Below, piece by piece: positions 5,635 to 62,814 of a DNA stretch of 64,000 bases; position 1 is the first letter of the stretch; each line of letters opens with the position of its first letter. This DNA is from an uncultured Candidatus Saccharibacteria bacterium. Lineage in GTDB: Bacteria > Patescibacteriota > Minisyncoccia > UBA6257 > 2-01-FULL-56-20. The notes beneath the pieces are model-generated. The model made no database searches. It saw only the letters and a program-made list of their open reading frames with translations, and was not told where the DNA came from. A program made the position numbers and the translations under genes. Location: assembly GCA_964365185.1 (NCBI GenBank), contig CAYIOP010000001.1, positions 112,673 to 176,672 on the forward strand. The letters are read 5' to 3'.

Positions 5635-7328
5635 TAGACGTGATTGTGATTGCGCTTAATTAAATTGAAGTCATTGGCTTTAAGTTGCTTCAGGGTAGAA
5701 GTAAAGTTGATACCTTTTTTAGAAAGAGCTTGGCCTAAGTATTGGCCAGAGGTAAAGTGCGGCAGGAGCACATAGTCCACTCCTTTTTTATATAAAGCTC
5801 TGGCGTCATTTTCAGTTTCAGCGCGAAGAATAAGTTTGGGTTTAAATTTTCTAAAATTCTTTAGGTTTTCAATGAGTCCTAAATTATCATCCAAATCCGG
5901 ACTGGTTGAAATCACTAATTTAACGCCGGACTTATCTATTTTTTCCAAGATTTCTTCGTCGCCAATATCGCCAAAAATGTAATCATATTTTTCTCTTTCC
6001 AGCTTTTCGATGACATCCGGATCAAAATCAACAATCAGTAATTCTTTTTTATTTAGAGCATGGGCGATATTTTCACCTGTACGATGACAACCGATTAAAA
6101 CAATGGATTTTTTGGCGACTTTTTCGGAAAAATCCAAAATTTTAACTTTTTTGCGCTCAAATAAAGAAAGGAGGGTTTTGAGAACGCGGAAAATTTGATG
6201 ACTATAAACAATCATATAGGCCGAAATCACGATGGTGATAACGCCAACCGCGGTGATTAAGGCGAGGTGTGAATCATTAATGTGGCCGAGTTTTAGACCC
6301 AAAACGGCTATGATTAAACTGAATTCAGAAATTTGCGCAACGGTCACGCCAGCCATAAAACTGGTCCTTTTACGATAACCCATAACGCCCATAATAATCA
6401 GCACAATTAGTGGGTTGCCGATTAATACGAATAACGAAAAAATAAGAATAGGAGTGCCGATACCATCGAGATTAGAAACGCCGAGCAAGGACCCTAAAAG
6501 AACAAAAAATATCAAGATAAAAAAGTCCCTAAGCGGCCGGATTTTGCTGGCAATCTGATGATTTTCGGAAGAATTGGCTAAAGCTAAGCCCGCTAAAAAT
6601 CCGGCAATCTCAATCGAGAAACCGATTCGACTGACCGCGGCCACCACCAAAAACATCCACATTAAACTCACTAGGAAAAGAAGTTCTTGCGACCTGGCAA
6701 TTTTGTCGAAAAGATGTGGCAAAATTTTTCGGCCAATCCAAATAGTGAAAGCAAAAAGAATTAACGCCTTAAGGATAGTGGCTAATACTCCCTGCCAAAT
6801 CAGACCAGAGCCATTTTCAATTCCTGACAAAATAACCAAAAGCAGAATCGCAACCACATCTTGAACCAGGAGAAAACCAATGGAGATTTTACCGTACAAA
6901 CTGTTTTGGTCTTTTTTGTCGGATAGAAGTTTTAAGACCACGATCGTGCTTGAAAAGGTAAGAGCAACGGCGATATAGAGCGCCGGCAGCGAGCTAAAAC
7001 CCAAGACAGTCGCAATGCCGAAGCCAATTATGGCGGTAAAAATAATTTGTCCAAGACCCACAATGAGCGCCGCTTTTCCCACTAAACGAAGAGAGGTGTA
7101 ATTGATTTCCAGGCCAACCATAAAAAGCAGGAACATAATCCCTAAATTGGAGAAAATTTGAAAAATCTCCGAATTGGCAAGATCGATATTGAAAAGTCCG
7201 AATTGCGCGATTAAAAAACCGGTGGCGATGTAAGCCAAGATAAGCGGTTGCTTAAAAAATTTAGCCACCAAGCTTAAAACCGCGGCGACTAAAATAATAA
7301 CAGCAAGGTCAAAAAAACCCGTGGGCAT
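5634..7328 (-). CDS. Monovalent cation:proton antiporter (CPA2/Kef-type) with a C-terminal RCK/TrkA-N domain
   Basis: About 12 TM helices followed by the Rossmann motif VLIGCHRTGENIAHAL. Confidence 0.85.
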   Translation of the reverse strand: MPTGFFDLAVIILVAAVLSLVAKFFKQPLILAYIATGFLIAQFGLFNIDLANSEIFQIFSNLGIMFLLFMVGLEINYTSLRLVGKAALIVGLGQIIFTAIIGFGIATVLGFSSLPALYIAVALTFSSTIVVLKLLSDKKDQNSLYGKISIGFLLVQDVVAILLLVILSGIENGSGLIWQGVLATILKALILFAFTIWIGRKILPHLFDKIARSQELLFLVSLMWMFLVVAAVSRIGFSIEIAGFLAGLALANSSENHQIASKIRPLRDFFILIFFVLLGSLLGVSNLDGIGTPILIFSLFVLIGNPLIVLIIMGVMGYRKRTSFMAGVTVAQISEFSLIIAVLGLKLGHINDSHLALITAVGVITIVISAYMIVYSHQIFRVLKTLLSLFERKKVKILDFSEKVAKKSIVLIGCHRTGENIAHALNKKELLIVDFDPDVIEKLEREKYDYIFGDIGDEEILEKIDKSGVKLVISTSPDLDDNLGLIENLKNFRKFKPKLILRAETENDARALYKKGVDYVLLPHFTSGQYLGQALSKKGINFTSTLKQLKANDFNLIKRNHNHV

Positions 7329-7984
7329 TATTGAGTGGTAAAAAATTTAACCGGAATTTTTAATTCGTCGGCGTGTTTCACAAGTCCCGAGGGATTATCC
7401 TTTTCTAAAACAAGCGTTCCTTTTTCGGTGGCTGGTTTTTGAAATTCGAGAATTGCTTCGAAGGGAACAAAATTTTCAGTCATCCACTCACCTTTAGCAT
7501 GGGCTGGTTTAATGGCTAATTCTTTACCATTGCCGTCTAAAAGTTTGACTGGAAAACTGGCCTCGAAAAACCATGTACCGCGAGCTTGTCCCTTGATTAT
7601 GAGAGGGCTATTCACAATTTGGTTAGGCGTGGGCTCAAATAACTGAATGATGGTTTGTTTTTCAAGGAGATTACCGAGGTCCTCAACAAAAACTTTTCCA
7701 TTATTTAATTGACATCTACGAGGATAACTTTCAAGTACAAGCACTCGATAACCAGCAGAAATACAATCTTCAAAATTAGAAATATGAAATGTTTTGCCGC
7801 CTAGAAGACAACTAGGAGGATAGCTTTTTTGTAGCGACCCGCCAGCATTAAGACAATCGGTAAAGGTTACAACGCCTGGGACCGGATTTTCATTATTATT
7901 TTTATTTTTAGGGCCAGGAACAAAAATTAAAATTCCAATTAAAAATGCAATAATTAGGCCAAAAACATAGACCAAAATTTTCAT
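7328..7984 (-). CDS. Secreted/anchored Ig-like (Gmad2-type) domain protein
   Basis: N-terminal TM and a C-terminal beta-rich domain (GTWFFEASFPVKLLDGNGKE...). Confidence 0.4.
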   Translation of the reverse strand: MKILVYVFGLIIAFLIGILIFVPGPKNKNNNENPVPGVVTFTDCLNAGGSLQKSYPPSCLLGGKTFHISNFEDCISAGYRVLVLESYPRRCQLNNGKVFVEDLGNLLEKQTIIQLFEPTPNQIVNSPLIIKGQARGTWFFEASFPVKLLDGNGKELAIKPAHAKGEWMTENFVPFEAILEFQKPATEKGTLVLEKDNPSGLVKHADELKIPVKFFTTQ

Positions 7985-8011
7985 AAGTATATTATAGCAT
8001 TAAATATAGGC

Positions 8012-9115
8012 TTATACACTTTCTAATTTTTCTATTCTAACGCCGATCAGGCGGATTTTTTTCTTGCTGGGATTTTCACGCTGGTCAAAAAATGGTAACA
8101 ATAATTTTAGAACCTCAAATTCTAGATTTTCCTTTGAGTGAATCGGCTCTTTTAAGGTGTGGTTTTTGGATTTAGTGATAAAACCCGAGAAGCGAACTGT
8201 GATAACAATGGTCTTAAATGAATCGAATCTAGATTCTTGAAATCGATTAAAAACCGATTCGATGAGTTGTTTCATTCTTTGAGTAATAAATTGCGCGTCA
8301 AGTGTGTCTTTGGAAAAAGTTTCTTGTTCGCCGATGGATTTGATTTCCTCAAATTCCCCAACCGGCGAGTCGTCCTTGCCTCTGATTTTTTGGTATAGCA
8401 CCATCCCCCATTTACCTAAAATTCGTTTCATTTCAGGTTCCGAGAACTTTTGGAGGTCTCGAACTTTAGCAACACCAAGTTTATTTAAAATCGTTTCGGT
8501 CTTGGGGCCAATGCCGGGAATTTTCCGAATAGTTAAATTTTCCAAAAATTTTTCTACTTTCTGCTGGCAGATTTTTTCATCATCATCGCCGATTATGGTT
8601 AAACCATCGGGTTTTTGCGCATCCGAGGCGATTTTAGCGATGAGTTTATTGGGACCAATACCAATGGAGCAGGTTAGATTTTCCTGGCTTTTGATTTTAG
8701 TTTTGATTTTTTGACAGAGAATTTCGGCTTTTTTAAATTCATTTAAAAAACTTAAATCAAAGTAAGCTTCATCGATGCTGGCTTCTTCAACAGCAGAAAC
8801 AAAATTTTTAACAATGGCAATTATTTCTCGCGAGACCTCAGTGTAGTTTTTATGATTCCCCCCGATAAAAACCGCTGCCGGCAATTTTTTGTCTTTAGCT
8901 TCCTGTGATAATTGCCAGGCCCGGCTGATGGACATAGCGGAGTGGATGCCATAGGCGCGGGCGGCATAATTCGCGGTTGAAACCACTCCCCGACCGTGAC
9001 CAGCCACCGGGTCAGCGCCGACCACAATTGGCAGGCCCTTAAGCCGAGGTCGGTCTCGCTCCTCAATCGCCGCAAAAAAAGCATCCATATCAAGATGGGC
9101 AATAATTCTATTCAT
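8012..9115 (-). CDS. dinB: DNA polymerase IV
   Basis: MNRIIAHLDMDAFFAAIEERDRPRLKGLPIVVG, Y-family palm motifs. Confidence 0.9.
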   Translation of the reverse strand: MNRIIAHLDMDAFFAAIEERDRPRLKGLPIVVGADPVAGHGRGVVSTANYAARAYGIHSAMSISRAWQLSQEAKDKKLPAAVFIGGNHKNYTEVSREIIAIVKNFVSAVEEASIDEAYFDLSFLNEFKKAEILCQKIKTKIKSQENLTCSIGIGPNKLIAKIASDAQKPDGLTIIGDDDEKICQQKVEKFLENLTIRKIPGIGPKTETILNKLGVAKVRDLQKFSEPEMKRILGKWGMVLYQKIRGKDDSPVGEFEEIKSIGEQETFSKDTLDAQFITQRMKQLIESVFNRFQESRFDSFKTIVITVRFSGFITKSKNHTLKEPIHSKENLEFEVLKLLLPFFDQRENPSKKKIRLIGVRIEKLESV

Positions 9116-9278
9116 TTTTTTACCTTGATATGGATGAAGGAAAGGGGTCGGGAAAATAGGAAGTTTTCCCGTGTGGGAATCCGCCAGCTGGCGGAACTAA
9201 AAACCGAGAGGTTGTTAGGGAGCTTGATTTACTCAAGCGACCATTCATATCGAGATGAGCGATGATTCTCATAAAGAA

Positions 9279-12765: not shown

Positions 12766-13368
12766 TTAGCGAATGAATTTTATTTTTGAATTGATTATTT
12801 TGACCACCTTTGAGGGCTTATTTTGTTTGCGACCACTATCGACATAGAAATCAATTTTAGCGCCGAAATATTTTTTGGCTTCTCGAATTGTTTTGGCGGG
12901 TGGCTCACCCTCAATGTTGGCGCTTGGGGCAACCAGTGGGCCGGTTTTTTTAAGGAAGGCGCGAATTGAAGCGGGTTTTGGAATACGGAAGGCAATGGTC
13001 TTAGTGCCGCGATGTAAATAAGTAAATTTTTTGGATGGGCAAGGAAGGATGATGCTTGTTGGGCCGGGCCAAAAACGAGAAGTTAGAATATAGAATTGAG
13101 AATTAAGGGAAATGCTAAAAAACTTTTTTAGGTCGCTTATGTTGCTAATTAAAACAATTATTGGTTTTTTAGGATTACGACGACGAAGCTTGTAAATTTT
13201 CTCTACTACTTTTGGTTTTAGAGCTGAACCAACTAGGCCATAGATGGTGTCAGTTGGGATAACGCCAATGTCGCCCTTTTTGAGTAGGGCGATGATTTTT
13301 GAGCTAAATCTTTTACTCTCTTCAATTTTTCTTGGCATTCCTTTTTCGAGAAATAAAGAAGTAAGCAT
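12766..13368 (-). CDS. tsaC: L-threonylcarbamoyladenylate synthase (YrdC/Sua5 family)
   Basis: GVIPTDTIYGLVGSAL...KIYKLRRRNPKKPIIVLISN, the YrdC signature. Confidence 0.8.
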   Translation of the reverse strand: MLTSLFLEKGMPRKIEESKRFSSKIIALLKKGDIGVIPTDTIYGLVGSALKPKVVEKIYKLRRRNPKKPIIVLISNISDLKKFFSISLNSQFYILTSRFWPGPTSIILPCPSKKFTYLHRGTKTIAFRIPKPASIRAFLKKTGPLVAPSANIEGEPPAKTIREAKKYFGAKIDFYVDSGRKQNKPSKVVKIINSKIKFIR

Positions 13369-13858
13369 AAACTAGAATTAAAGCGCTGTAATTTATAAGC
13401 ATAAAAGTAGAATGTCCCCAACTAGTTCCATTGATAGTGAAATCCGAGACGGGAAATAAAAATGGAGTGGGAAAGAAATCCTTGGAATGGCTGAAGATGT
13501 CGATTATTATGTGAATTCCCCATCCGGCCATGAGCCAATAGGGTTTTCTACGAATAAGCCAAATTAAACCAAAAACCGCGGCGAAAATTATGAAACTGTG
13601 AGTGAAATTGTAAAGCGTAGAAATATAATCCGGAATGAGATTTGGGTCAGGCGGGCCGCCTTGAAACGGACTTTCTTCTGAAAAGAAAATTACTCGAAAG
13701 ATATTTTGAACAAAGAAAATTCCGAAGGAGAGAAGGTCGGGAGCAATGCCAAATAAAATTCCCAACCAAATATCGCGGCGCGAGCGCTTTTGGTTTTTGA
13801 GGCGAGCGGAACTTTCAAAAATTGCATTGGTCCAGAGACCGTGCGCGAGGATGTCCAT
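13322..13858 (-). CDS. Membrane-bound metal-dependent hydrolase (YdjM/DUF457-like)
   Basis: Polytopic membrane protein starting MDILAHGLW, with His-rich loops (HIIIDIFSHSKD). The YdjM family is SOS-regulated in E. coli (established knowledge). Confidence 0.45.
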   Translation of the reverse strand: MDILAHGLWTNAIFESSARLKNQKRSRRDIWLGILFGIAPDLLSFGIFFVQNIFRVIFFSEESPFQGGPPDPNLIPDYISTLYNFTHSFIIFAAVFGLIWLIRRKPYWLMAGWGIHIIIDIFSHSKDFFPTPFLFPVSDFTINGTSWGHSTFMLINYSALILVYAYFFISRKRNAKKN

Positions 13859-14051
13859 AAGAATTAGGCGTTAAGTTTTTCCTCCGAAAGAGGATCCGCC
13901 TCTGGCGGAAAGCGGGAAAGTGTTAGGGGTTAAGTTTATATTAATAATTGTGGCTCGGCAATTTGGGGGTTGCTTAGATTGACAAGGTAATTAGAATTCT
14001 TTATTCTTTTTATTAGTAAACAAGTGAAAATTTAATAGAACTGGAGGGAAT

Positions 14052-16205: not shown

Positions 16206-17516
16206 TCATAGAATTTTGCCACGAAGTCGGCGGTGGTAGGCAATGGCAAATCTGTGGGCTTCGTCACGGATTTGGATAAGGGTTTTGGGTTCAATGCCAG
16301 CTGGCATTTTGCCGATAAGTTCGTTTTTCTTGCGCTCTGGGCCTTTAGCTAAACCAATGACCGGCATAAATAAGTTAAGTTTGTTTAGAACTGATTTGGC
16401 CGCGTTTACCTGTCCCCTACCACCGTCGATTAAAATTAAATCTGGGTGCGGCCAGTTGTTTTTAAAACGGCGAGTTAAAATTTCTTTAATCATAGCAGTG
16501 TCATCTTGACCTTGAACCGCTCGAATTTTGAATTTGCGATATTCGTTTTTATCGGGCCGAAAAGTGTTTCCTCCAAAGGCGGATCCTCCTTTGGAGGAAA
16601 AAACCACCATTCCACCCACTGCGGCGGTGCCGGAAATTTGAGAGATGTCGTACCCCTCAATACGTTGTTTAGGGTTTAGCCAATAGCCACTAGGGTTTAG
16701 GGAATTATTCTCCTTGATGAGGGCGATGTCGTTGATGTGCTTGAGGCCAAAGATTTGGCGGCGGATTTTTTCTGCTTTTTCAAATTCCAGCTTTTCGCTT
16801 AGTTGTTTCATCTCTGCCTCAAGGTTGCGAATAACTCTGGATTTTTTGCCGGCTAGAAAAAGTTTGAGGTTATGAATGATTTTTTTATATTCAGTTTCAC
16901 TTATCGCGTCCACGCAGACACCCGGGCAATTACCAATTTGAAAATCAAAGCAGGGACGGCTGACGCCTACATGATGTGAATCTGCTAATCTATGCAAATG
17001 CCGCAAATTGCGAATAGTTCGTTTTTTTAATTCTTCTTCGGAGTGAGTGTTCCATGGGAAAATTTGGCGAATGAGTTTTAATGATTCACGGACATCTCGG
17101 GCAGAGAGAAAGGGACCGTAGATTTGGCTGTATTTCCCTTTTTCCCCGGCAATGTCTTTGCCACGAGTTAGAACGAGGCGGGGAAATTTTTCTCCGCCTT
17201 TGGCGGAGGTAATCGCAAAATATATGAAACTTCGGTCGTCTTTTTCTAAGACATTGTAGAGCGGCTGATGTTTTTTGATGAGCTCTGATTCTAAAATCAG
17301 CGCCTCAAGCGCGGTGTCAGCTTTTTTGAAATCAATTTTTTTGACTTGAGAAATGAGTTTTTCAATTCGGTAGTCGTGGCTTTTCTGAAAATAACTTGAA
17401 ACGCGGCGCTTTAGATTGCCGGCTTTGCCGATATAGAGAATTTTCCCGTTCGTGTTTTTCATCAAGTAAACGCCGGGAGTGTCGGGAAGTTTTTGGTAGA
17501 GAGTGGTTTTAGTCAT
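16206..17516 (-). CDS. uvrC: Excinuclease ABC subunit C. Short form of 436 aa with no C-terminal (HhH)2 domain
   Basis: GIY-YIG N-domain (YLMKNTNGKILYIGKAGNLKRRVSSYF), a Cys-rich UvrBC region, and an RNaseH-like endonuclease domain ending IRDEAHRFAIAYHRRLR. Confidence 0.85.
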   Translation of the reverse strand: MTKTTLYQKLPDTPGVYLMKNTNGKILYIGKAGNLKRRVSSYFQKSHDYRIEKLISQVKKIDFKKADTALEALILESELIKKHQPLYNVLEKDDRSFIYFAITSAKGGEKFPRLVLTRGKDIAGEKGKYSQIYGPFLSARDVRESLKLIRQIFPWNTHSEEELKKRTIRNLRHLHRLADSHHVGVSRPCFDFQIGNCPGVCVDAISETEYKKIIHNLKLFLAGKKSRVIRNLEAEMKQLSEKLEFEKAEKIRRQIFGLKHINDIALIKENNSLNPSGYWLNPKQRIEGYDISQISGTAAVGGMVVFSSKGGSAFGGNTFRPDKNEYRKFKIRAVQGQDDTAMIKEILTRRFKNNWPHPDLILIDGGRGQVNAAKSVLNKLNLFMPVIGLAKGPERKKNELIGKMPAGIEPKTLIQIRDEAHRFAIAYHRRLRGKIL

Positions 17517-20746: not shown

Positions 20747-20797
20747 AAAAATGTAATGCTAATCTACAAATTTCATCCGAATGCTGCGAATGATTGC

Positions 20798-20827
20798 GTC
20801 CTCCGAAGGAGGATCCTCCTTTGGAGG
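20798..20827. repeat. 30-nt GGAGG double-hairpin palindrome TCCTCCGAAGGAGGA+TCCTCCTTTGGAGGA, upstream of uvrA
   Basis: Two adjacent 6-bp-stem hairpins that are mutually complementary. Family members at 13880-13909, 16569-16598, 23530-23559 and 42136-42165. Confidence 0.7.
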
Positions 20828-20913
20828 AAATGTTGCGAATTTATTTGGATTTGACATTTTTAGGGTTGTGGTGTATGCTTTGAGTAGTTAATTAAATTAA
20901 GTTTGGAGGAGCT

Positions 20914-23493: not shown

Positions 23494-23616
23494 TTTTAAA
23501 AGCGTAATACTAATATACAAATATGTGTGTCCTCCGAAGGAGGATCCTCTCTTGGAGAAAATGATACAAATAATGTAATCAACTAGAAGCGGATAAACGC
23601 GGATTGAAAATTGCCC

Positions 23617-41947: not shown

Positions 41948-42113
41948 TTAATAGGAGGAAAAAGTTTTAGTCCACCTGCGTTCGGGTGGACTTTATTTAT
42001 CACACGAAAGCGCGCCTACGGTCTTTGACCTTCGGCAACACGAAAGCCCCACACGAATTTAAACACACGAAATTTGCTCACTTAATAAATTTAAGTTAAT
42101 TTATCTAGGAGAT

Positions 42114-42135
42114 GGCCCTATCGTCTAATGGCTAG
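42114..42135 (+). repeat. 22-nt duplicate of the 5' end of tRNA-Glu (GGCCCTATCGTCTAATGGCTAG)
   Basis: Exact copy of tRNA positions 1-22 (42427-42448). The GIY-YIG gene lies between this copy and the intact tRNA. Confidence 0.85.
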
Positions 42136-42181
42136 CCCTCCGGAGGAGGGTCCTCCTTCGGAGGAGACGCACAAAGATGAA

Positions 42182-42448
42182 ATGAATTGTTTTCTCTATG
42201 TATTAAAGAATAAAAATAAAAACTGGCATTATATTGGAGTTACCTCTAACCTAAAGAAGAGGTTGGAATATCACAATCGCGGTAAAGTTAAATCAACTCG
42301 ACCTTATGTTCCACTTACGCTTGTATATTCAGAAAAATTTAATAATAATAGTGAAGCCCGCAAGCGAGAAAATTTTCTAAAAAGGACAGCTCGAGCAAGA
42401 GAAGATTTATTCGAAAAAATAGATTTGGCCCTATCGTCTAATGGCTAG
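42182..42448 (+). CDS. GIY-YIG nuclease family protein (YhbQ/UPF0213-like, 88 aa)
   Basis: FLYVLKNKNKNWHYIGVTSNLKKRLEYHNRGKV...RPYVPLTLVYSEKFNNNSEARKRENFLKR is a GIY...YIG...R...E...N motif. The longest ORF starts at 42128 inside the tRNA-fragment copy, so the internal Met at 42182 is preferred. The stop codon lies inside the intact tRNA. Confidence 0.7.
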   Translation: MNCFLYVLKNKNKNWHYIGVTSNLKKRLEYHNRGKVKSTRPYVPLTLVYSEKFNNNSEARKRENFLKRTARAREDLFEKIDLALSSNG

Positions 42449-42498
42449 GACGGTTGGTTCTCAGCCAGCAAATCGGGGTTCGATCCCCCGTAGGGCTG
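42427..42498 (+). tRNA. tRNA-Glu (anticodon CUC)
   Basis: Cloverleaf: acceptor GGCCCUA/UAGGGCU, D-stem GUCU/GGAC, anticodon stem GUUGG/CCAGC with loop UUCUCAG, T-arm CGGGG-UUCGAUC-CCCCG, discriminator G. No CCA encoded. Terminator at 42510-42540. Confidence 0.85.
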
Positions 42499-42695
42499 CT
42501 TTTAGAAAAATAAAAGCCCTTAGGGAAGGCTTTTATTTTTTCTACAGTGGAGATTTCATTACGGAGGATCGAACTAAGAGGGGTCGGGAGAACATTTGGT
42601 CTCCCGTGTCGGAATGAGTCCGGCAACTGCCGGACGGATTCAAAACCGAGGGTTTTGAAAGAGTCCCGCCGAAGGGGGACGACGTGAGATTCCCC

Positions 42696-42710
42696 CGTAG
42701 GGCTGCTATT
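42696..42710 (+). repeat. Duplicate of the tRNA-Glu 3' end (CCCCCGTAGGGCTGC), preceded by a degenerate T-arm
   Basis: GGGGGacgacgugagauuCCCCCGUAGGGCUGC mirrors the tRNA T-arm and 3' acceptor. The roughly 200 bp between tRNA and copy is highly structured and non-coding. Confidence 0.6.
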
Positions 42711-58917: not shown

Positions 58918-58951
58918 ATCTATTCCTGATTATACTATACCAAGTTCATCT

Positions 58952-58979
58952 ATTCTAATGTTCTTGAGAACATTAGAAT
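58952..58979. promoter_or_regulatory. Perfect 12-4-12 palindrome ATTCTAATGTTC-TTGA-GAACATTAGAAT: candidate ArsR/SmtB operator over the arsR promoter
   Basis: Sits 35-62 nt upstream of the arsR ATG. A TATAAT lies 9-14 nt upstream of the ATG. The TGTTC-N-GAACA core resembles SmtB/CzrA-type operators. Confidence 0.55.
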
Positions 58980-59070
58980 AGATGAAGGGGTGGGGCGGGG
59001 GTGATAAGAGGAGAAAAACAAAAACCGCCGCACGAGGTGTGGGCGGTTTTTGTTTTGTGCTTAGTGTTTT

Positions 59071-59960: not shown

Positions 59961-60758
59961 CTAAAAACTTTTTAGAAAATCATTAAGTAAAAGCGAGCTT
60001 AGGGCGATTTGATTATTGGATAGATTCCTAACTGTTTGATATAAATTTTTAGCTTTTCTAGCAGCTTTATTCGCTGAAAGCCAGACTACTCCATCAATCA
60101 CGGCTATTCTGATGGTTTTTTTATCTTTCTTCTTAATAAAATTTATTGTCTCTCTAAAACTTTTATCTTGAGTTCCTCCACTGGTGGAAATAAATTTTGC
60201 TTCTCCGATTACAAATTTATCTCCCACTTTAAATACTAAATCTAAGCCCTTTGGTCCTTTGTATCCTAATTTTTTATGAGCAAATTCTTTAAGAGCTTTG
60301 TCTCCTCCGGCTAAAATTGCTACTTGACTTTTGGTGGTTAAAAAATTATCTGGTTTTAATATTGGATAATTTAATTTATATAACCACTTTTGAAACATTT
60401 GCCCCATCTGGCGAGACGACGATGAAGGACGCAGAGATCCATCGATAATTCCCTCAAGCCCTGTTCTGAAAAGACGCTCGCTAATTCTTTTCGTTGTTGC
60501 AGGATTTTTGTCTAAAGCTTTAGGATCTTTCCTTATAAACCCAACATAAGGATCATCAAATGGAAAACGTTCTAATTCAAGTAGGGTTAAAATAAGTTCT
60601 TTTTTATTTTTGTTTTTGAATGCGACTTCTATGTCCTTCCTCTTTTTTTGATTAATCTCTCGTCCTACTCCAATATTGACTGGATAGACATTACTTAATT
60701 TATCTAAGTATCCGTTCGAGTTAGCTAACTCAATACTTTTCTTTATCCAGGTATTCAT
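59961..60758 (-). CDS. Putative type II restriction endonuclease (PD-(D/E)xK fold)
   Basis: PD-D/ExK-like core GLDLVFKVGDKFVIGEAKF. The start was chosen at Met (MNTWIKK) at 60758, which gives an ATGA overlap with the methyltransferase stop. The longest ORF extends to 60857. Confidence 0.5.
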   Translation of the reverse strand: MNTWIKKSIELANSNGYLDKLSNVYPVNIGVGREINQKKRKDIEVAFKNKNKKELILTLLELERFPFDDPYVGFIRKDPKALDKNPATTKRISERLFRTGLEGIIDGSLRPSSSSRQMGQMFQKWLYKLNYPILKPDNFLTTKSQVAILAGGDKALKEFAHKKLGYKGPKGLDLVFKVGDKFVIGEAKFISTSGGTQDKSFRETINFIKKKDKKTIRIAVIDGVVWLSANKAARKAKNLYQTVRNLSNNQIALSSLLLNDFLKSF

Positions 60759-60759
60759 A

Positions 60760-61953
60760 TCACGAAAACAATACTCCTGTTTTTCTAGATTCGATAGGTA
60801 ATTGACCGAGAATCTTAGTGAAGTAAAGATAATTAATAAATTTATAAGTAAAATCAAACGATATTCTTTTTCTATCTTTGTCGCGGTAATTAGTTAAGAA
60901 GAGCGAAAATTGATCGTTTCTAAGTTGATTTATTTCTTTATTGAATAAATCAATTATTTTCTCTTGTATGTTTATGCTTAATTTATTCGAGTCGGAAATT
61001 AAATAAATCATATGCCTTGAGGTTGGTTTACTGATAAGGCATTTAACTCCGTGTTTTCTTATATCTTCTAAAGCAATTTTTCCATTTTCGCTACCACTAT
61101 CAATAGCTTTAAGAAACATAATATTAGAATTTATAATTTTTTTGAGAGAACTAGATACCTTAACTTCCTTTTTATTTTTAATGTGATTATAGGCGGCCTG
61201 AATTTTATATTGACCCGATTGAATATCACTTTCCACTAATCTTCTTATTTTTAGATGATTATCAACTATATTAATCGGATTTATTATTCTTCCGCCAATT
61301 GTCCAATGAAATTTTTTTTCAAGAAAGATTTTTGTTGAATTTTTTTCCGGGAAAAAATTAGTTTCTACTTCTTGATTTTCTGGATTATCACTCTTTCTAA
61401 TTGATCGATAATAAAAAGTTATAACATTAGAAGTGGTATCCGGGAAAACTTGCTGTTTAAAATAATTGATCTTAACTATCCTAAATTTTTCAAAGAATAA
61501 ATTTCGAATTTTACGAGAATTTTCGGCTGATAGAAAATTTATTGGAATTACTACGATTCCCTCCTTACTGTTAAGAATTGAATTTAAAGAAATCTGGTAC
61601 AAATCCTCAAACCCGCTACTTTTAAAATATTTTTCTTTAGTTTCTTTATCGGCTTTATTGATATTTAAATAGGGTGGATTTGTTACTATAAAATCATATT
61701 TTCTTTTCTCTTTTAAGCTGTCGCCATAAAAAATTATGCGATTATCGACTAAATTTTTATCAATCTCAAACCCTGCTACTGTTTTAGCGCCATTATTCCT
61801 TGCCCAAGATAAAAGATCTCCTGAGCCAGCGAATGGATCGGATATATTTTTATTAACCACAAATTTCTCTAGTCCTTGTAATACATAGTTTGAATTAACT
61901 GTAAAAAACTGACCTAATTGTTTTTTAAATTGTACGGTTGTTTCTGCTTGCAT
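60760..61953 (-). CDS. N6-adenine-specific DNA methyltransferase (FxGxG before NPPY; gamma-class-like)
   Basis: LGQFFT, motif I DPFAGSGDLL, motif IV TNPPY, and a long C-terminal target-recognition region. Confidence 0.8.
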   Translation of the reverse strand: MQAETTVQFKKQLGQFFTVNSNYVLQGLEKFVVNKNISDPFAGSGDLLSWARNNGAKTVAGFEIDKNLVDNRIIFYGDSLKEKRKYDFIVTNPPYLNINKADKETKEKYFKSSGFEDLYQISLNSILNSKEGIVVIPINFLSAENSRKIRNLFFEKFRIVKINYFKQQVFPDTTSNVITFYYRSIRKSDNPENQEVETNFFPEKNSTKIFLEKKFHWTIGGRIINPINIVDNHLKIRRLVESDIQSGQYKIQAAYNHIKNKKEVKVSSSLKKIINSNIMFLKAIDSGSENGKIALEDIRKHGVKCLISKPTSRHMIYLISDSNKLSINIQEKIIDLFNKEINQLRNDQFSLFLTNYRDKDRKRISFDFTYKFINYLYFTKILGQLPIESRKTGVLFS

Positions 61954-61969: not shown

Positions 61970-62608
61970 TTACTTTATTGACTTCCAGGAACCGTTTTTG
62001 AGAACCGAGATGACTTTTCCTTTTAGTTCCATTTTGTCAGTAAATAGAATAATTTTATGCTTTGGGTTTTCGGGCTTTAAGTAGACGTAAGGCGGCTTAT
62101 CGTCCGAGATAAATCTTTTTATAGTGGAACCATCCTCGATACTTGCTAATACAATATCACCGGAAACAAATTCTTTTTGAGATTTTACTAAAACCGCATC
62201 GCCGTCGTCGATGCCGGCGTTAATCATTGAGTCGCCAGAAACTTTTAAAACAAAAACTTCGTCTTTTAGAAAAGACACATCGGATGTTGATGTGGTTTCC
62301 CATTCTCCGGAAATTTCTACCATTTCAAGTGGGGTGCCAGCTTTAGTGATTCCTAAGTTAGATATGAGCGGAGAAAATCCTAAAGTTTTAAATCCAGCAA
62401 AAGTGATTTTTAAACTTCGAGCAAATGAATCTCTATTTATTAATCCCGTTTGCTCAAGTTTTTTTAGGAGATCTAGAACAGATTGATTAGAGGAAACACC
62501 CAAATACCCTCTCATTTCTTCTAGGGTTGGCGAATATCCATTATCTCGTGTGTGTTCGTAAATTAGTTGGAGTAGTTCTTTTTGACGGTCCGTTATAAGG
62601 CCTTCCAT
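61970..62608 (-). CDS. lexA: LexA repressor (wHTH + S24 peptidase)
   Basis: N-terminus LITDRQKELLQLIYEHTRDNGYSPTLEEMRGYLGVSSNQSVLDLLKKLEQTGLI (LexA wing-helix). Cleavage-site-like KAG, catalytic Ser in VSGDSM, and Lys in TIKRF. Confidence 0.85.
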   Translation of the reverse strand: MEGLITDRQKELLQLIYEHTRDNGYSPTLEEMRGYLGVSSNQSVLDLLKKLEQTGLINRDSFARSLKITFAGFKTLGFSPLISNLGITKAGTPLEMVEISGEWETTSTSDVSFLKDEVFVLKVSGDSMINAGIDDGDAVLVKSQKEFVSGDIVLASIEDGSTIKRFISDDKPPYVYLKPENPKHKIILFTDKMELKGKVISVLKNGSWKSIK

Positions 62609-62614
62609 AATTAA

Positions 62615-62642
62615 ATTATAAACTGACCTTTTGGTCAGTCAA
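62615..62642 (-). promoter_or_regulatory. lexA promoter with an embedded palindromic operator ACTGACC-TTTT-GGTCAGT
   Basis: On the minus strand: TTGACT (62642-62637), a 16-nt spacer containing the palindrome (62622-62639), TATAAT (62620-62615), then ATG 6 nt later (leaderless). This is the classic autoregulatory layout. Confidence 0.6.
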
Positions 62643-62814
62643 TGTGGATAACTTTTTGAATATGCCCTTTAGGCGGGTTCGTTCAACTGGCTGGGGGGTG
62701 GAAGTAAAAAAAGCCCTGAATTTTTGGGAAAGACAGGACTCGTTGAGTCAAATTTAGAAAAAAATAAGGGGTTGCTTGTGGCAACCCCTTTTTGTTTCCT
62801 TTCTAATCTCGCGA

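Follow-up and report, generated by a model that had tools for sequence, protein, structure and literature searches.

To our knowledge, only few repeat families, chiefly of Rickettsia, are present inside bacterial protein-coding genes. The Rickettsia palindromic elements (RPE), reportedly described by Ogata et al. in 2000, may be regarded as the closest analogue in behaviour of the element analyzed here, a palindrome of 30 bp residing in the uvrC gene on a stretch of 64,000 nucleotides (the window) from an uncultured Candidatus Saccharibacteria bacterium. Both are palindromic families with copies in intergenic regions as well as in frame in unrelated housekeeping genes, where they would be translated as an extra surface segment of a host protein that stays intact, and for neither of them is a transposase known. 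On the other hand, RPE comprise approximately 100 to 150 bp and are confined to Rickettsia, while the element described here measures 15 or 30 bp, is modular and GC-rich, occurs in many phyla and is almost always read in one frame. The in-frame insertion without disruption of the gene and, in a predicted structure, the location in a loop agree with RPE, whereas the length and the Rickettsia families do not. We therefore treat the element as analogous to RPE and not as a member of this group. Our analyses argue, with a probability of roughly 60%, that the uvrC palindrome is a copy of a family of dispersed, ultra-short, GC-rich palindromic repeats of the selfish-DNA type, i.e. of the same kind as RPE, repetitive extragenic palindromic (REP) sequences and miniature inverted-repeat transposable elements (MITEs), which is frame-neutral and translated.

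In our analysis the organism was placed in the Patescibacteria as Parcubacteria/Paceibacterota-like. The host gene (16206..17516, minus strand) encodes a protein of 436 amino acids that was assigned to TIGR00194 (NCBIfam) with 351 bits at a cut-off of 285 and contains the Pfam domains GIY-YIG, UVR and UvrC_RNaseH. It is a short form of UvrC lacking the C-terminal double helix-hairpin-helix domain, (HhH)2. The UvrC orthologues of Patescibacteria, 389 to 478 amino acids in length, also end after the RNase H-like domain and are devoid of the (HhH)2 DNA-binding domain of canonical UvrC. In a preliminary description of the locus uvrC had been called essential; it is a repair gene and normally non-essential. 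The palindrome is located at 16569..16598 and its plus-strand sequence, TCCTCCAAAGGCGGATCCTCCTTTGGAGGA, is the one given in that description, which had also stated that the reading frame of uvrC is kept. This holds true, since the palindrome occupies ten whole codons of an intact open reading frame (ORF) of 436 codons. On the coding (minus) strand it reads TCC TCC AAA GGA GGA TCC GCC TTT GGA GGA, corresponding to SSKGGSAFGG (residues 307 to 316) within the UvrC peptide VVFSSKGGSAFGGNTFR. The 30-mer is composed of two 15-bp palindromic units (TCCKCC-N3-GGMGGA) arranged head to tail and in frame. As a whole it is palindromic too, with 14 of 15 pairs matching and one mismatched, and is predicted to fold into a hairpin with a stem of 13 bp (RNA: -22 kcal/mol, z = -4.05; DNA: -13.8 kcal/mol, z = -5.5). 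This palindrome is not a chance match. The number of 30-mer matches expected by chance, determined with the shuffled window, was 0.00 and the probability of finding these codons, given the peptide SSKGGSAFGG, is 1.4e-6 according to the codon usage of the window. GGA accounts for 15% of the Gly codons of the window, yet all four Gly residues of the insert are encoded by this triplet.

That this UvrC protein is about ten residues longer than related proteins, as the preliminary description had proposed from the E. coli sequence, was confirmed by several comparisons. Approximately 105 of 120 Patescibacteria UvrC orthologues lack the insert and have the sequence MVVF-x-N-G-K-P-D-K-N at a position where the window protein reads MVVF-SSKGGSAFGG-NTF-RPDKN. 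Leaving aside an identical database entry, the nearest of these proteins is 61% identical. Alignments with the UvrC structures 3c65 and 8b0q also open a gap of ten residues at the insert. The closest orthologue (L122) belongs to a locus with the same gene order as the window (uvrB, uvrA, uvrC, DUF5671, ydjM, sua5). Its empty site, GTT GTT TTT TCT AAT AAC AAA CCC GAT, differs from the filled site of the window, GTG GTT TTT (30 bp) AAC ACT TTT CGG CCC GAT, by a clean 30-bp insertion without target-site duplication. No unit was detected anywhere in 21 kb of the L122 locus, including the regions upstream of uvrA, uvrB and ydjM. The absence of the insert from L122 and from most of the other orthologues supports a lineage-specific gain in uvrC.

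The extra residues are not restricted to the window. The loop is filled in about 13 to 15 of the 120 orthologues, which are found in approximately nine separate places of a neighbour-joining tree and are not mutually closest (similarity 0.612, compared to 0.624 in random sets). All filled alleles have x-x-F after the insert, the empty ones x-N-G. For one of them (L001), the uvrC DNA sequence is TCCGCCAAAGGCGGA CCCGCCTCTGGCGGG, in which both units are self-complementary, the second one by paired changes at both ends (CCCGCC..GGCGGG). Another gene (L125) contains one perfect single unit and three (L002, L123, L124) contain decayed copies of the palindrome. Orthologues with extra residues thus possess the palindrome, intact or decayed, at the DNA level as well. 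Extra residues without it would have pointed to a mere coincidence of Gly and Ser codons; the outcome supports the view that the extra residues of UvrC arose at the DNA level. A single ancient insertion into uvrC was considered and rejected on the grounds of the scattered positions of the filled orthologues and their lack of mutual similarity; this evidence is weak because the neighbour-joining tree is without support values. The pattern would fit a strong site preference with convergent adjustment of the loop base or, alternatively, a lateral spread of filled alleles by recombination. A target-site duplication at uvrC was also considered, as a 7-nt sequence (GGTTTTC) flanks the L001 copy at an offset of 3 nt. 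This model was dismissed because it predicts a loop three residues longer than the one observed.

The window gene harbors a second insert. A single 15-bp unit, TCCGCC-AAA-GGCGGA, lies in frame at 17193..17207 (minus strand), encoding SAKGG (residues 104 to 108). Comparison of its DNA with L122, L001 and L002 revealed that the Lys codon AAA of the orthologues falls exactly into the loop of the unit, thus the net gain at this site is 12 nt or four amino acids. Among the 120 orthologues, this unit is peculiar to the UvrC protein of the window. An AlphaFold2 model built on 64 orthologues (mean predicted local distance difference test score, pLDDT, 84) placed the double insert in a loop (308-319) between a strand (300-307) and a following strand, and the single one in a loop (104-113) between strands 98-103 and 114-118. 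According to this prediction both inserts lie in beta-hairpin loops.

The palindrome is not a feature specific to uvrC but belongs to a repeat family with dispersed copies. Scanning one genome per species of GTDB (596 Gb) with the pattern TCCKCCNNNGGMGGATCCKCCNNNGGMGGA yielded at least 119 stretches, compared to about 0.03 expected by our own arithmetic; all counts of copies, frames and hosts given below rest on the matches listed. Among these, most hosts belong to the Patescibacteria, but Omnitrophota, Kiritimatiellae, Lentisphaerae, Planctomycetes, Elusimicrobia, Ignavibacteria, Dehalococcoidia and others are also represented, and the records originate from many projects and assemblers. The family consensus is tTT-TCCGCC-RRA-GGCGGA-TCCGCC-TYY-GGCGGA-AAa. 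Its basic unit comprises 15 bp (TCCGCC-N3-GGCGGA) and the usual form is the 30-bp head-to-tail dimer. Approximately 90% of the units in other genomes have the arms TCCGCC/GGCGGA, and the codons show about 99% fixation when genomes are compared. Changes occurring in pairs preserve the symmetry of each unit of 15 bp. Other genomes that bear the element yielded, in a total of 829 kb, another 16 perfect single units (0.05 expected) and another eight doubles, i.e. about one element per 35 kb. A phage as vector was rejected in view of only two matches to the palindrome in IMG/VR. No Rfam family matched the palindrome at gathering thresholds, a tRNA-Glu being the sole match in the window. In the literature searched, whose coverage is incomplete, no description of this element was found. 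Some of its surroundings are repetitive as well. Several intergenic copies are situated inside short tandem repeats of 6 to 7 nt (aagattg, gattttt, aaaagtc, aaatctt; L070:2445-2515, L091:590-660, L072:7345-7415, L044:4725-4795 and L117). A second repeat, GTCATTSYGAG / CTCRSRATGAC, occurred at 35 sites in 987 kb of fetched loci (about 4 expected by our own calculation; e.g. L008:1499, L039:4763, L046:7646), often no more than 250 nt away from the 30-mer, which in L008 sits in the middle of this repeat.

The copies located inside genes show a bias in reading frame. Of 129 copies, 43 are intergenic, 76 lie in frame 0 of ORFs with at least 150 codons (SAxGGSAxGG) and only ten in the other two frames; about 60% reside within long ORFs. 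The bias (76 of 86) is highly significant (binomial P = 4e-26 versus an even split). Since 30 nucleotides preserve the frame of the host gene in any phase, it can be inferred that translation of the insert takes place and selection acts on the peptide, the Ser/Ala/Gly reading being the only one tolerated. Altogether, 72 host ORFs represent 156 Pfam families, including helicases, aminoacyl-tRNA synthetases (ArgRS), DnaK/Hsp70, DnaG, the PHP domain of polymerase III, Mfd, UvrA, UvrB and glycosyltransferases. Copies may be located deep within the genes, at residue 307 of 436 in UvrC, 573 of 861 in UvrA and 469 of 675 in Mfd. The Mfd protein (L040) contains exactly ten additional residues (VLPKN-SAKGGSASGG-KNIIK) compared to homologues that are 77% identical, without a target-site duplication, and another Mfd homologue carries a decayed copy at the same site. 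Similarly, alignment of an ArgRS (L001) with PDB entry 6ao8 disclosed a gap of 12 residues at the insert. The UvrB copy (L024) was discarded as an example of a clean insertion, as no clean gap was seen against solved UvrB structures. In two Ignavibacteria proteins (L037:6021-6050 and L051:390-419), the element is situated at the same spot before a C-terminal ...LASGVYFY that resembles a type IX secretion sorting domain, so that the element is also present in a type of protein foreign to Patescibacteria, and in two Hsp70 ORFs (DnaK homologues of different genomes, L104 and L116) it lies in the disordered C-terminal tail, at residues ~609-625.

Apart from RPE, several other systems share properties with this family. 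REP sequences and REPINs (REP doublets forming hairpins), which are connected with REP-associated tyrosine transposases (RAYT, Y1/HUH), are also GC-rich imperfect palindromes of 20 to 40 bp, often paired, dispersed and without target-site duplication. According to the definition given in PMC3733652, however, REPs are extragenic and possess a conserved GTAG or CGTC head. By contrast, the present family starts with TTTCCGCC (flanks tTT / AAa, start TCCGCC) and is intragenic in about 60% of cases. No RAYT gene was found among the approximately 62 genes of the window or beside the copies examined. With MITEs such as the Correia/NEMIS elements of Neisseria, the family has the non-autonomous nature and the inverted ends in common, and a subset of its copies has flanking direct repeats of 7 to 8 bp. 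Correia/NEMIS elements can even occupy promoters of repair genes, e.g. uvrB. MITEs, on the other hand, are 50 to 500 bp long and have distinct terminal inverted repeats, regular duplications and related insertion sequence (IS) elements, while the whole element described here has 30 bp, and no parent IS element was found for the 30-mer. The MITE-like insertion into a coding sequence, one of two alternatives offered in the preliminary description, is supported by the clean 30-bp empty site, the dispersal over the window and at least 119 loci, and the single frame in 76 of 86 intragenic copies. Formally, however, the element is no MITE, considering the length of only 30 bp, the missing target-site duplication at uvrC and the lack of a known transposase. 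The DNA uptake sequences (DUS) of Neisseria and the uptake signal sequences (USS) of Pasteurellaceae resemble the family by inverted pairs, an intragenic frame bias and an enrichment in genome-maintenance genes, which is only suggestive here, but they are about ten times denser, lineage-specific and arise via point mutation and drive instead of block insertion. Mobile GC clusters of yeast mitochondria and the byp elements of Magnusiomyces are short GC-rich palindromic clusters of an AT-rich genome that occasionally occur in coding sequence. They share with our element the presence of short GC-rich palindromes inside genes; yet they are organellar, and byps are skipped by the ribosome, whereas the frame bias of the present family argues for translation. 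Finally, palindromic amphipathic repeat coding elements (PARCEL) are coding sequences with dyad symmetry that spread horizontally among disparate microbes. In PARCEL, though, an amphipathic motif of 25 residues is repeated in tandem within ORFs whose function is unknown, in contrast to single inserts of five or ten codons in conserved enzymes. We would place the element among the palindromic repeats that genes tolerate in their coding sequence, as a very short variant occurring across phyla.

Further copies were detected in the window by means of a position weight matrix (PWM) built from the copies in other genomes. While window shuffles scored at most 2.2, the scan identified five double elements with scores from 24 to 48, the uvrC dimer attaining the highest value (48.3), and the single unit at 17193 (unit score 28.6). 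The density is thus about one element per 10 kb. One double element (20799..20828, score 38.6) is located in a divergent intergenic region 52 bp upstream of the uvrA start (20746); it differs from the uvrC 30-mer by two mismatches and has an imperfect direct repeat, AATGATTGCG / AATGTTGCG, on its two sides. Another one (23530..23559, score 24.6), whose second unit is degenerate (TCCTCTCTTGGAGAA), lies about 37 bp upstream of the likely ATG of uvrB (~23493). The third (13880..13909, score 47.0) precedes a ydjM-like gene (13322-13858, minus strand), followed by sua5, by 21 bp. The fourth (42136..42165, score 29.1), CCCTCC-GGA-GGAGGG + TCCTCC-TTC-GGAGGA, resides in a 5' fragment of tRNA-Glu that represents a duplication; a small GIY-YIG ORF starts 13 nt further downstream. 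In addition, TCCGCC-AGCT-GGCGGA at 9180..9195, 65 bp upstream of dinB (8012-9115, minus strand), is probably a single-unit variant with a 4-nt spacer. Its membership is less certain, but its arms are identical to the family consensus and only about 0.004 such 12-base matches are expected in 64 kb according to our arithmetic. Two in-frame S[AST]xGG motifs, at 334-348 in an AP endonuclease (ENSAGGG) and at 60174-60188 in a restriction enzyme, were discarded as ordinary protein sequence. Nine of the ten window units show the variant TCCTCC/GGAGGA, with T at unit position 4, compared to roughly 10% of the units elsewhere (P = 9e-9). This shared variant implies that the copies of this genome arose from one another or are homogenised together.

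Other symmetric or repeated sequences were observed in the window as well. Between the 16-mer upstream of dinB and the dinB start codon there is a palindrome, CGGGAAAA-N7-TTTTCCCG (9149-9171). The sequence ATTTGTAKATTAGYATTAC is common to uvrA and uvrB just 5' of their start codons (20747-20775 and 23494-23525, minus strand), where a Shine-Dalgarno sequence is missing; it may be a shared promoter or leader element of both genes. A perfect palindrome of 42 bp with arms of 20 bp, TTCATCTATTCTAATGTTCT TG AGAACATTAGAATAGATGAA, is located at 58945-58986, but its sequence is unrelated to the TCCKCC family.

From these data a scheme for the origin of the uvrC inserts can be proposed. Within this lineage, the dimer entered the codons for a beta-hairpin turn in the RNase H-like endonuclease domain of UvrC, adding exactly 30 bp without a target-site duplication, and the monomer entered the turn of another hairpin that directly follows the GIY-YIG domain. 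Since the unit corresponds to five codons, contains no stop and encodes Ser-Ala/Ser-x-Gly-Gly in the frame used, the insert would be translated as an extra flexible loop, leaving uvrC intact and being near-neutral for the protein. The presence of the insert could thus be explained without a regulatory role. Several observations weigh against such a selfish repeat, however. No mobilising enzyme was identified: there is no transposase domain among the ~62 genes of the window, nor was a transposase present in the top families adjoining the copies elsewhere. Target-site duplications are absent at the uvrC copy (compared to L122) and at the Mfd copy, and flanking direct repeats of at least 6 nt exist at only 13 of 127 copies, which is nevertheless more than the 1.6 expected; several of them have a length of 7 to 8 nt and begin exactly at the element ends. 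We infer that the family spread by some copying process at the DNA level. The scattered occurrence of filled UvrC loops with a constant x-x-F would moreover need a strong site preference or a lateral spread of filled alleles. Another point is the position of the copies in the window. Essentially all of its genes (~62) were annotated and eight were counted as damage-related. Every copy is associated with a DNA-damage gene. Copies precede uvrA, uvrB, the ydjM-like gene, the GIY-YIG gene and, as the variant, dinB, and uvrC contains two of them; none was found at the other ~54 genes. All four intergenic doubles are located in 5' regions of the eight damage-related genes (hypergeometric P = 1.3e-4). 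Elsewhere, excision-repair proteins account for four of 71 hosts (UvrA L083, UvrB L024, UvrC L044, Mfd L040), compared to approximately 0.7 to 1.2 expected (P = 0.006 to 0.03), an enrichment that is only suggestive. A purely neutral passenger does not explain this placement at damage genes and the excision-repair bias. All window copies but one are clustered within 15 kb, so that a local spread could mimic a regulon; a conditional test within these 15 kb gave P ~0.015 by our own count.

An operator or roadblock, an uptake-like signal and an RNA hairpin function are regarded as minority readings. It is conceivable, albeit quite unlikely, that the palindrome is a co-opted operator at which a dimeric regulator, bound as a pair of dimers to two tandem sites, controls a DNA-damage regulon. 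The uvrC copies would then be roadblocks or extra operators, and the remaining copies by-products of a mobile binding site. The location of all window copies at damage-related genes (P = 1.3e-4) is what this model predicts, uvrA, uvrB, dinB and ydjM are LexA-regulated genes of E. coli, half-sites of 6 bp with a spacing of 3 bp suit a dimeric helix-turn-helix protein, the symmetry of the units is preserved by paired changes, and UvrA, UvrB, UvrC and Mfd are over-represented among the hosts elsewhere. However, lexA itself (61970-62608, TIGR00498) has no copy. The palindrome of its own promoter is another one, with no second occurrence in the window. The L122 locus, in spite of its like gene order, has no copy 5' of uvrA, uvrB or ydjM, and only about one in 50 intergenic copies in other genomes is near an uvr gene, the neighbours being of all kinds. 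The copies deep within genes and the clustering in 15 kb also speak against operators. No test supported the internal regulatory or pause site that the preliminary description had offered as an alternative to insertion: L122 lacks the upstream copies, the palindrome at lexA differs, and hosts and flanking genes elsewhere are of all kinds. The position of every window copy at a DNA-damage gene nevertheless leaves such a site a small probability. A LexA (SOS) box was also rejected as the main explanation. Copies do exist 5' of the core SOS genes uvrA, uvrB, ydjM-like and dinB (variant), but in the relatives there were none in L122 and none upstream of uvrA in L002, and the lexA promoter carries the other palindrome instead of the element. 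According to Sanchez-Osuna et al., who reportedly studied the question in 2017, the LexA motif of Patescibacteria is a direct repeat. The lexA region of the window (61970-62660) possesses a near-consensus promoter, TTGACT-16-TATAAT, with the 18-bp palindrome ACTGACCAAAAGGTCAGT (62622-62639, ACTGACC-N4-GGTCAGT) between the hexamers. ACTGACC-N4-GGTCAGT does not occur a second time in the window and is a candidate LexA box. The short distance between the -10 hexamer and the ATG (only 6 nt) suggests that the mRNA is leaderless. Next to lexA there is a low-GC island (59961-61953, ~30% compared to 41%) with a Tsp45I-like restriction enzyme and an Eco57I-like methylase, which was probably acquired horizontally. 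For the time being, palindromes 5' of uvrA and uvrB should not be annotated as SOS boxes absent binding evidence.

A role as an uptake or recombination signal comparable to the uptake sequences of Neisseria and Haemophilus, whose hallmarks Davidsen (2004) as well as Findlay and Redfield (2009) are said to have worked out, is distinctly unlikely. In this case DNA containing the element would be preferred, alleles would spread laterally and copies would accumulate in genome-maintenance genes. Inverted pairs, many intragenic copies, a strong frame bias, variable loops and the apparent bias for repair and replication are in line with such a function. The same applies to the patchy distribution of filled uvrC alleles with a constant x-x-F, which fits lateral allele replacement, and Patescibacteria are widely believed to import DNA. 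On the other hand, the densities in the window and in other genomes fall far short of the approximately one copy per kb of DUS and USS. The element is distributed over many phyla, while uptake sequences are lineage-specific, and its copies arise as clean insertions of 15 or 30 bp, not by point mutation. An RNA-level element is highly improbable. In this case an RNase or RNA-binding protein might act on the hairpin, which lies in the uvrC mRNA and 5' of uvrA and uvrB, or the hairpin might slow down the ribosome or RNA polymerase, the result being post-transcriptional co-regulation or pausing. Predicted folding energies of -22, -19 and -25 kcal/mol (z from -3 to -4) favor this assumption. Moreover, the variant TCCTCC/GGAGGA comprises a Shine-Dalgarno-like GGAGG and its complement, and uvrA, uvrB and ydjM have no obvious Shine-Dalgarno sequence at the start codon. 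By contrast, Rfam contains no match, about 90% of the units elsewhere (TCCGCC/GGCGGA) are not Shine-Dalgarno-like, two copies of the window have folds no more stable than those of shuffled sequences (z = -1.4 and -1.8), and the intergenic copies lie in divergent promoter regions that need not be transcribed. The bias for a single frame, too, is predicted by selection on the peptide and not on the RNA. That a Gly/Ser loop evolved by selection on the protein and its codons became self-complementary by accident is hardly credible. Such loops are common, and TCC (Ser) and GGA (Gly) are mutually reverse-complementary; yet the probability of the codons given the peptide is extremely low (1.4e-6), the 30-mer recurs with two mismatches in non-coding DNA 5' of uvrA, and identical codon strings exist in unrelated proteins of many phyla, by which this explanation is effectively refuted. 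An artefact of assembly or sequencing, a palindromic chimera or a linker, is practically negligible, even though a BamHI site (GGATCC) forms the middle of the element and amplified DNA can yield palindromes. The copies are internal to long contigs of many independent projects and assemblers, frames are kept, mutated or partly decayed copies occupy the orthologous site in different genomes, and beyond ordinary BamHI primers the literature searched contained no linker of such a sequence.

Hence, a repeat of the selfish-DNA type accounts best for the palindrome, and the copy at 42136..42165 may provide a hint as to how it moves. This copy is part of a cassette (42113..42499, plus strand) that begins with a 5' fragment of tRNA-Glu (42113-42134), in which the tRNA sequence resumes with GACG after the palindrome. 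It is followed by a GIY-YIG ORF (42179-42448, 89 amino acids, Pfam PF01541), whose 3' end overlaps an intact tRNA-Glu gene (42427-42499). The same layout was found at four further loci, where a tRNA 5' fragment containing palindromic units in the D loop or anticodon loop precedes a GIY-YIG ORF and an intact tRNA: L034:7385-7835 (tRNA-Ser UGA), L118 ~7644-7990 (minus strand, tRNA-Gly), L127:1400-1853 (tRNA-Ser GCT) and L126:1440-1814 (tRNA-Lys, with a differing palindrome). The ORFs of the cassettes encode approximately 80 to 100 amino acids, and the intact tRNA is the same as that of the fragment. Judging from this arrangement, the cassette has the appearance of a free-standing nuclease gene which establishes itself at tRNA genes and restores them in the process. 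A metagenome search with a single protein for relatives of the GIY-YIG protein yielded five loci, two of which contain the tRNA cassette. In three of seven loci outside the window that have such a gene, the element is located no more than 250 nt 5' of its start (estimated binomial P ~0.002 at 0.0375 per gene). This association makes the small GIY-YIG genes a candidate for a link to the movement of the repeat family. Behind the tRNA-Glu of the window there is a hairpin-rich stretch (42560-42706), at the end of which the 3' end of the tRNA is present a second time (gattcccccgtagggctgct, ~42685-42706). A unit-like palindrome, CCCGCC-GAA-GGGGGA (42665-42679), lies before this second copy. The stretch may be a remnant of another tRNA-targeted insertion. 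In a metagenome-assembled genome of Kiritimatiellae (L007:4569-4752, L007:6390-6572 and, on the minus strand, L060 ~7150-7354), the 30-mer forms the 5' end of a ~190-bp repeat with at least three copies. This repeat contains GTCATTCCGAGCG..GAGGAATCTC, a motif located immediately 5' of the GIY-YIG gene in L004, and looks like a GIY-YIG gene that has lost its ORF and kept the flanks.

It is tempting to go one step further and to assume a new cross-phylum class of coding-compatible mobile DNA whose spread and retention are tied to DNA repair, although we consider this unlikely. Such DNA would travel with GIY-YIG cassettes beside tRNA genes and enter genes as exact blocks of five or ten codons. 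Filled alleles would spread by recombination, copies at uvrA, uvrB, uvrC and mfd would be kept as a shared operator or uptake/recombination signal, and the uvrC copies would be functional in a damage-response circuit. Irrespective of that, the family is an order of magnitude shorter than the repeats known from Rickettsia, is built of five-codon modules in essentially one frame and is present in conserved enzymes of many uncultivated phyla. Its recurrent loop insertions will confuse alignments, phylogenies and structure models of proteins from candidate phyla. At the same time, they list, by way of natural examples, the positions at which essential proteins accept inserts of five to ten residues. 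Mechanistically, the family raises the question of what inserts an exact 30-bp hairpin without target duplication, for which the small GIY-YIG nucleases by tRNA genes are the lead, while the bias for excision-repair genes among the hosts offers a second one.

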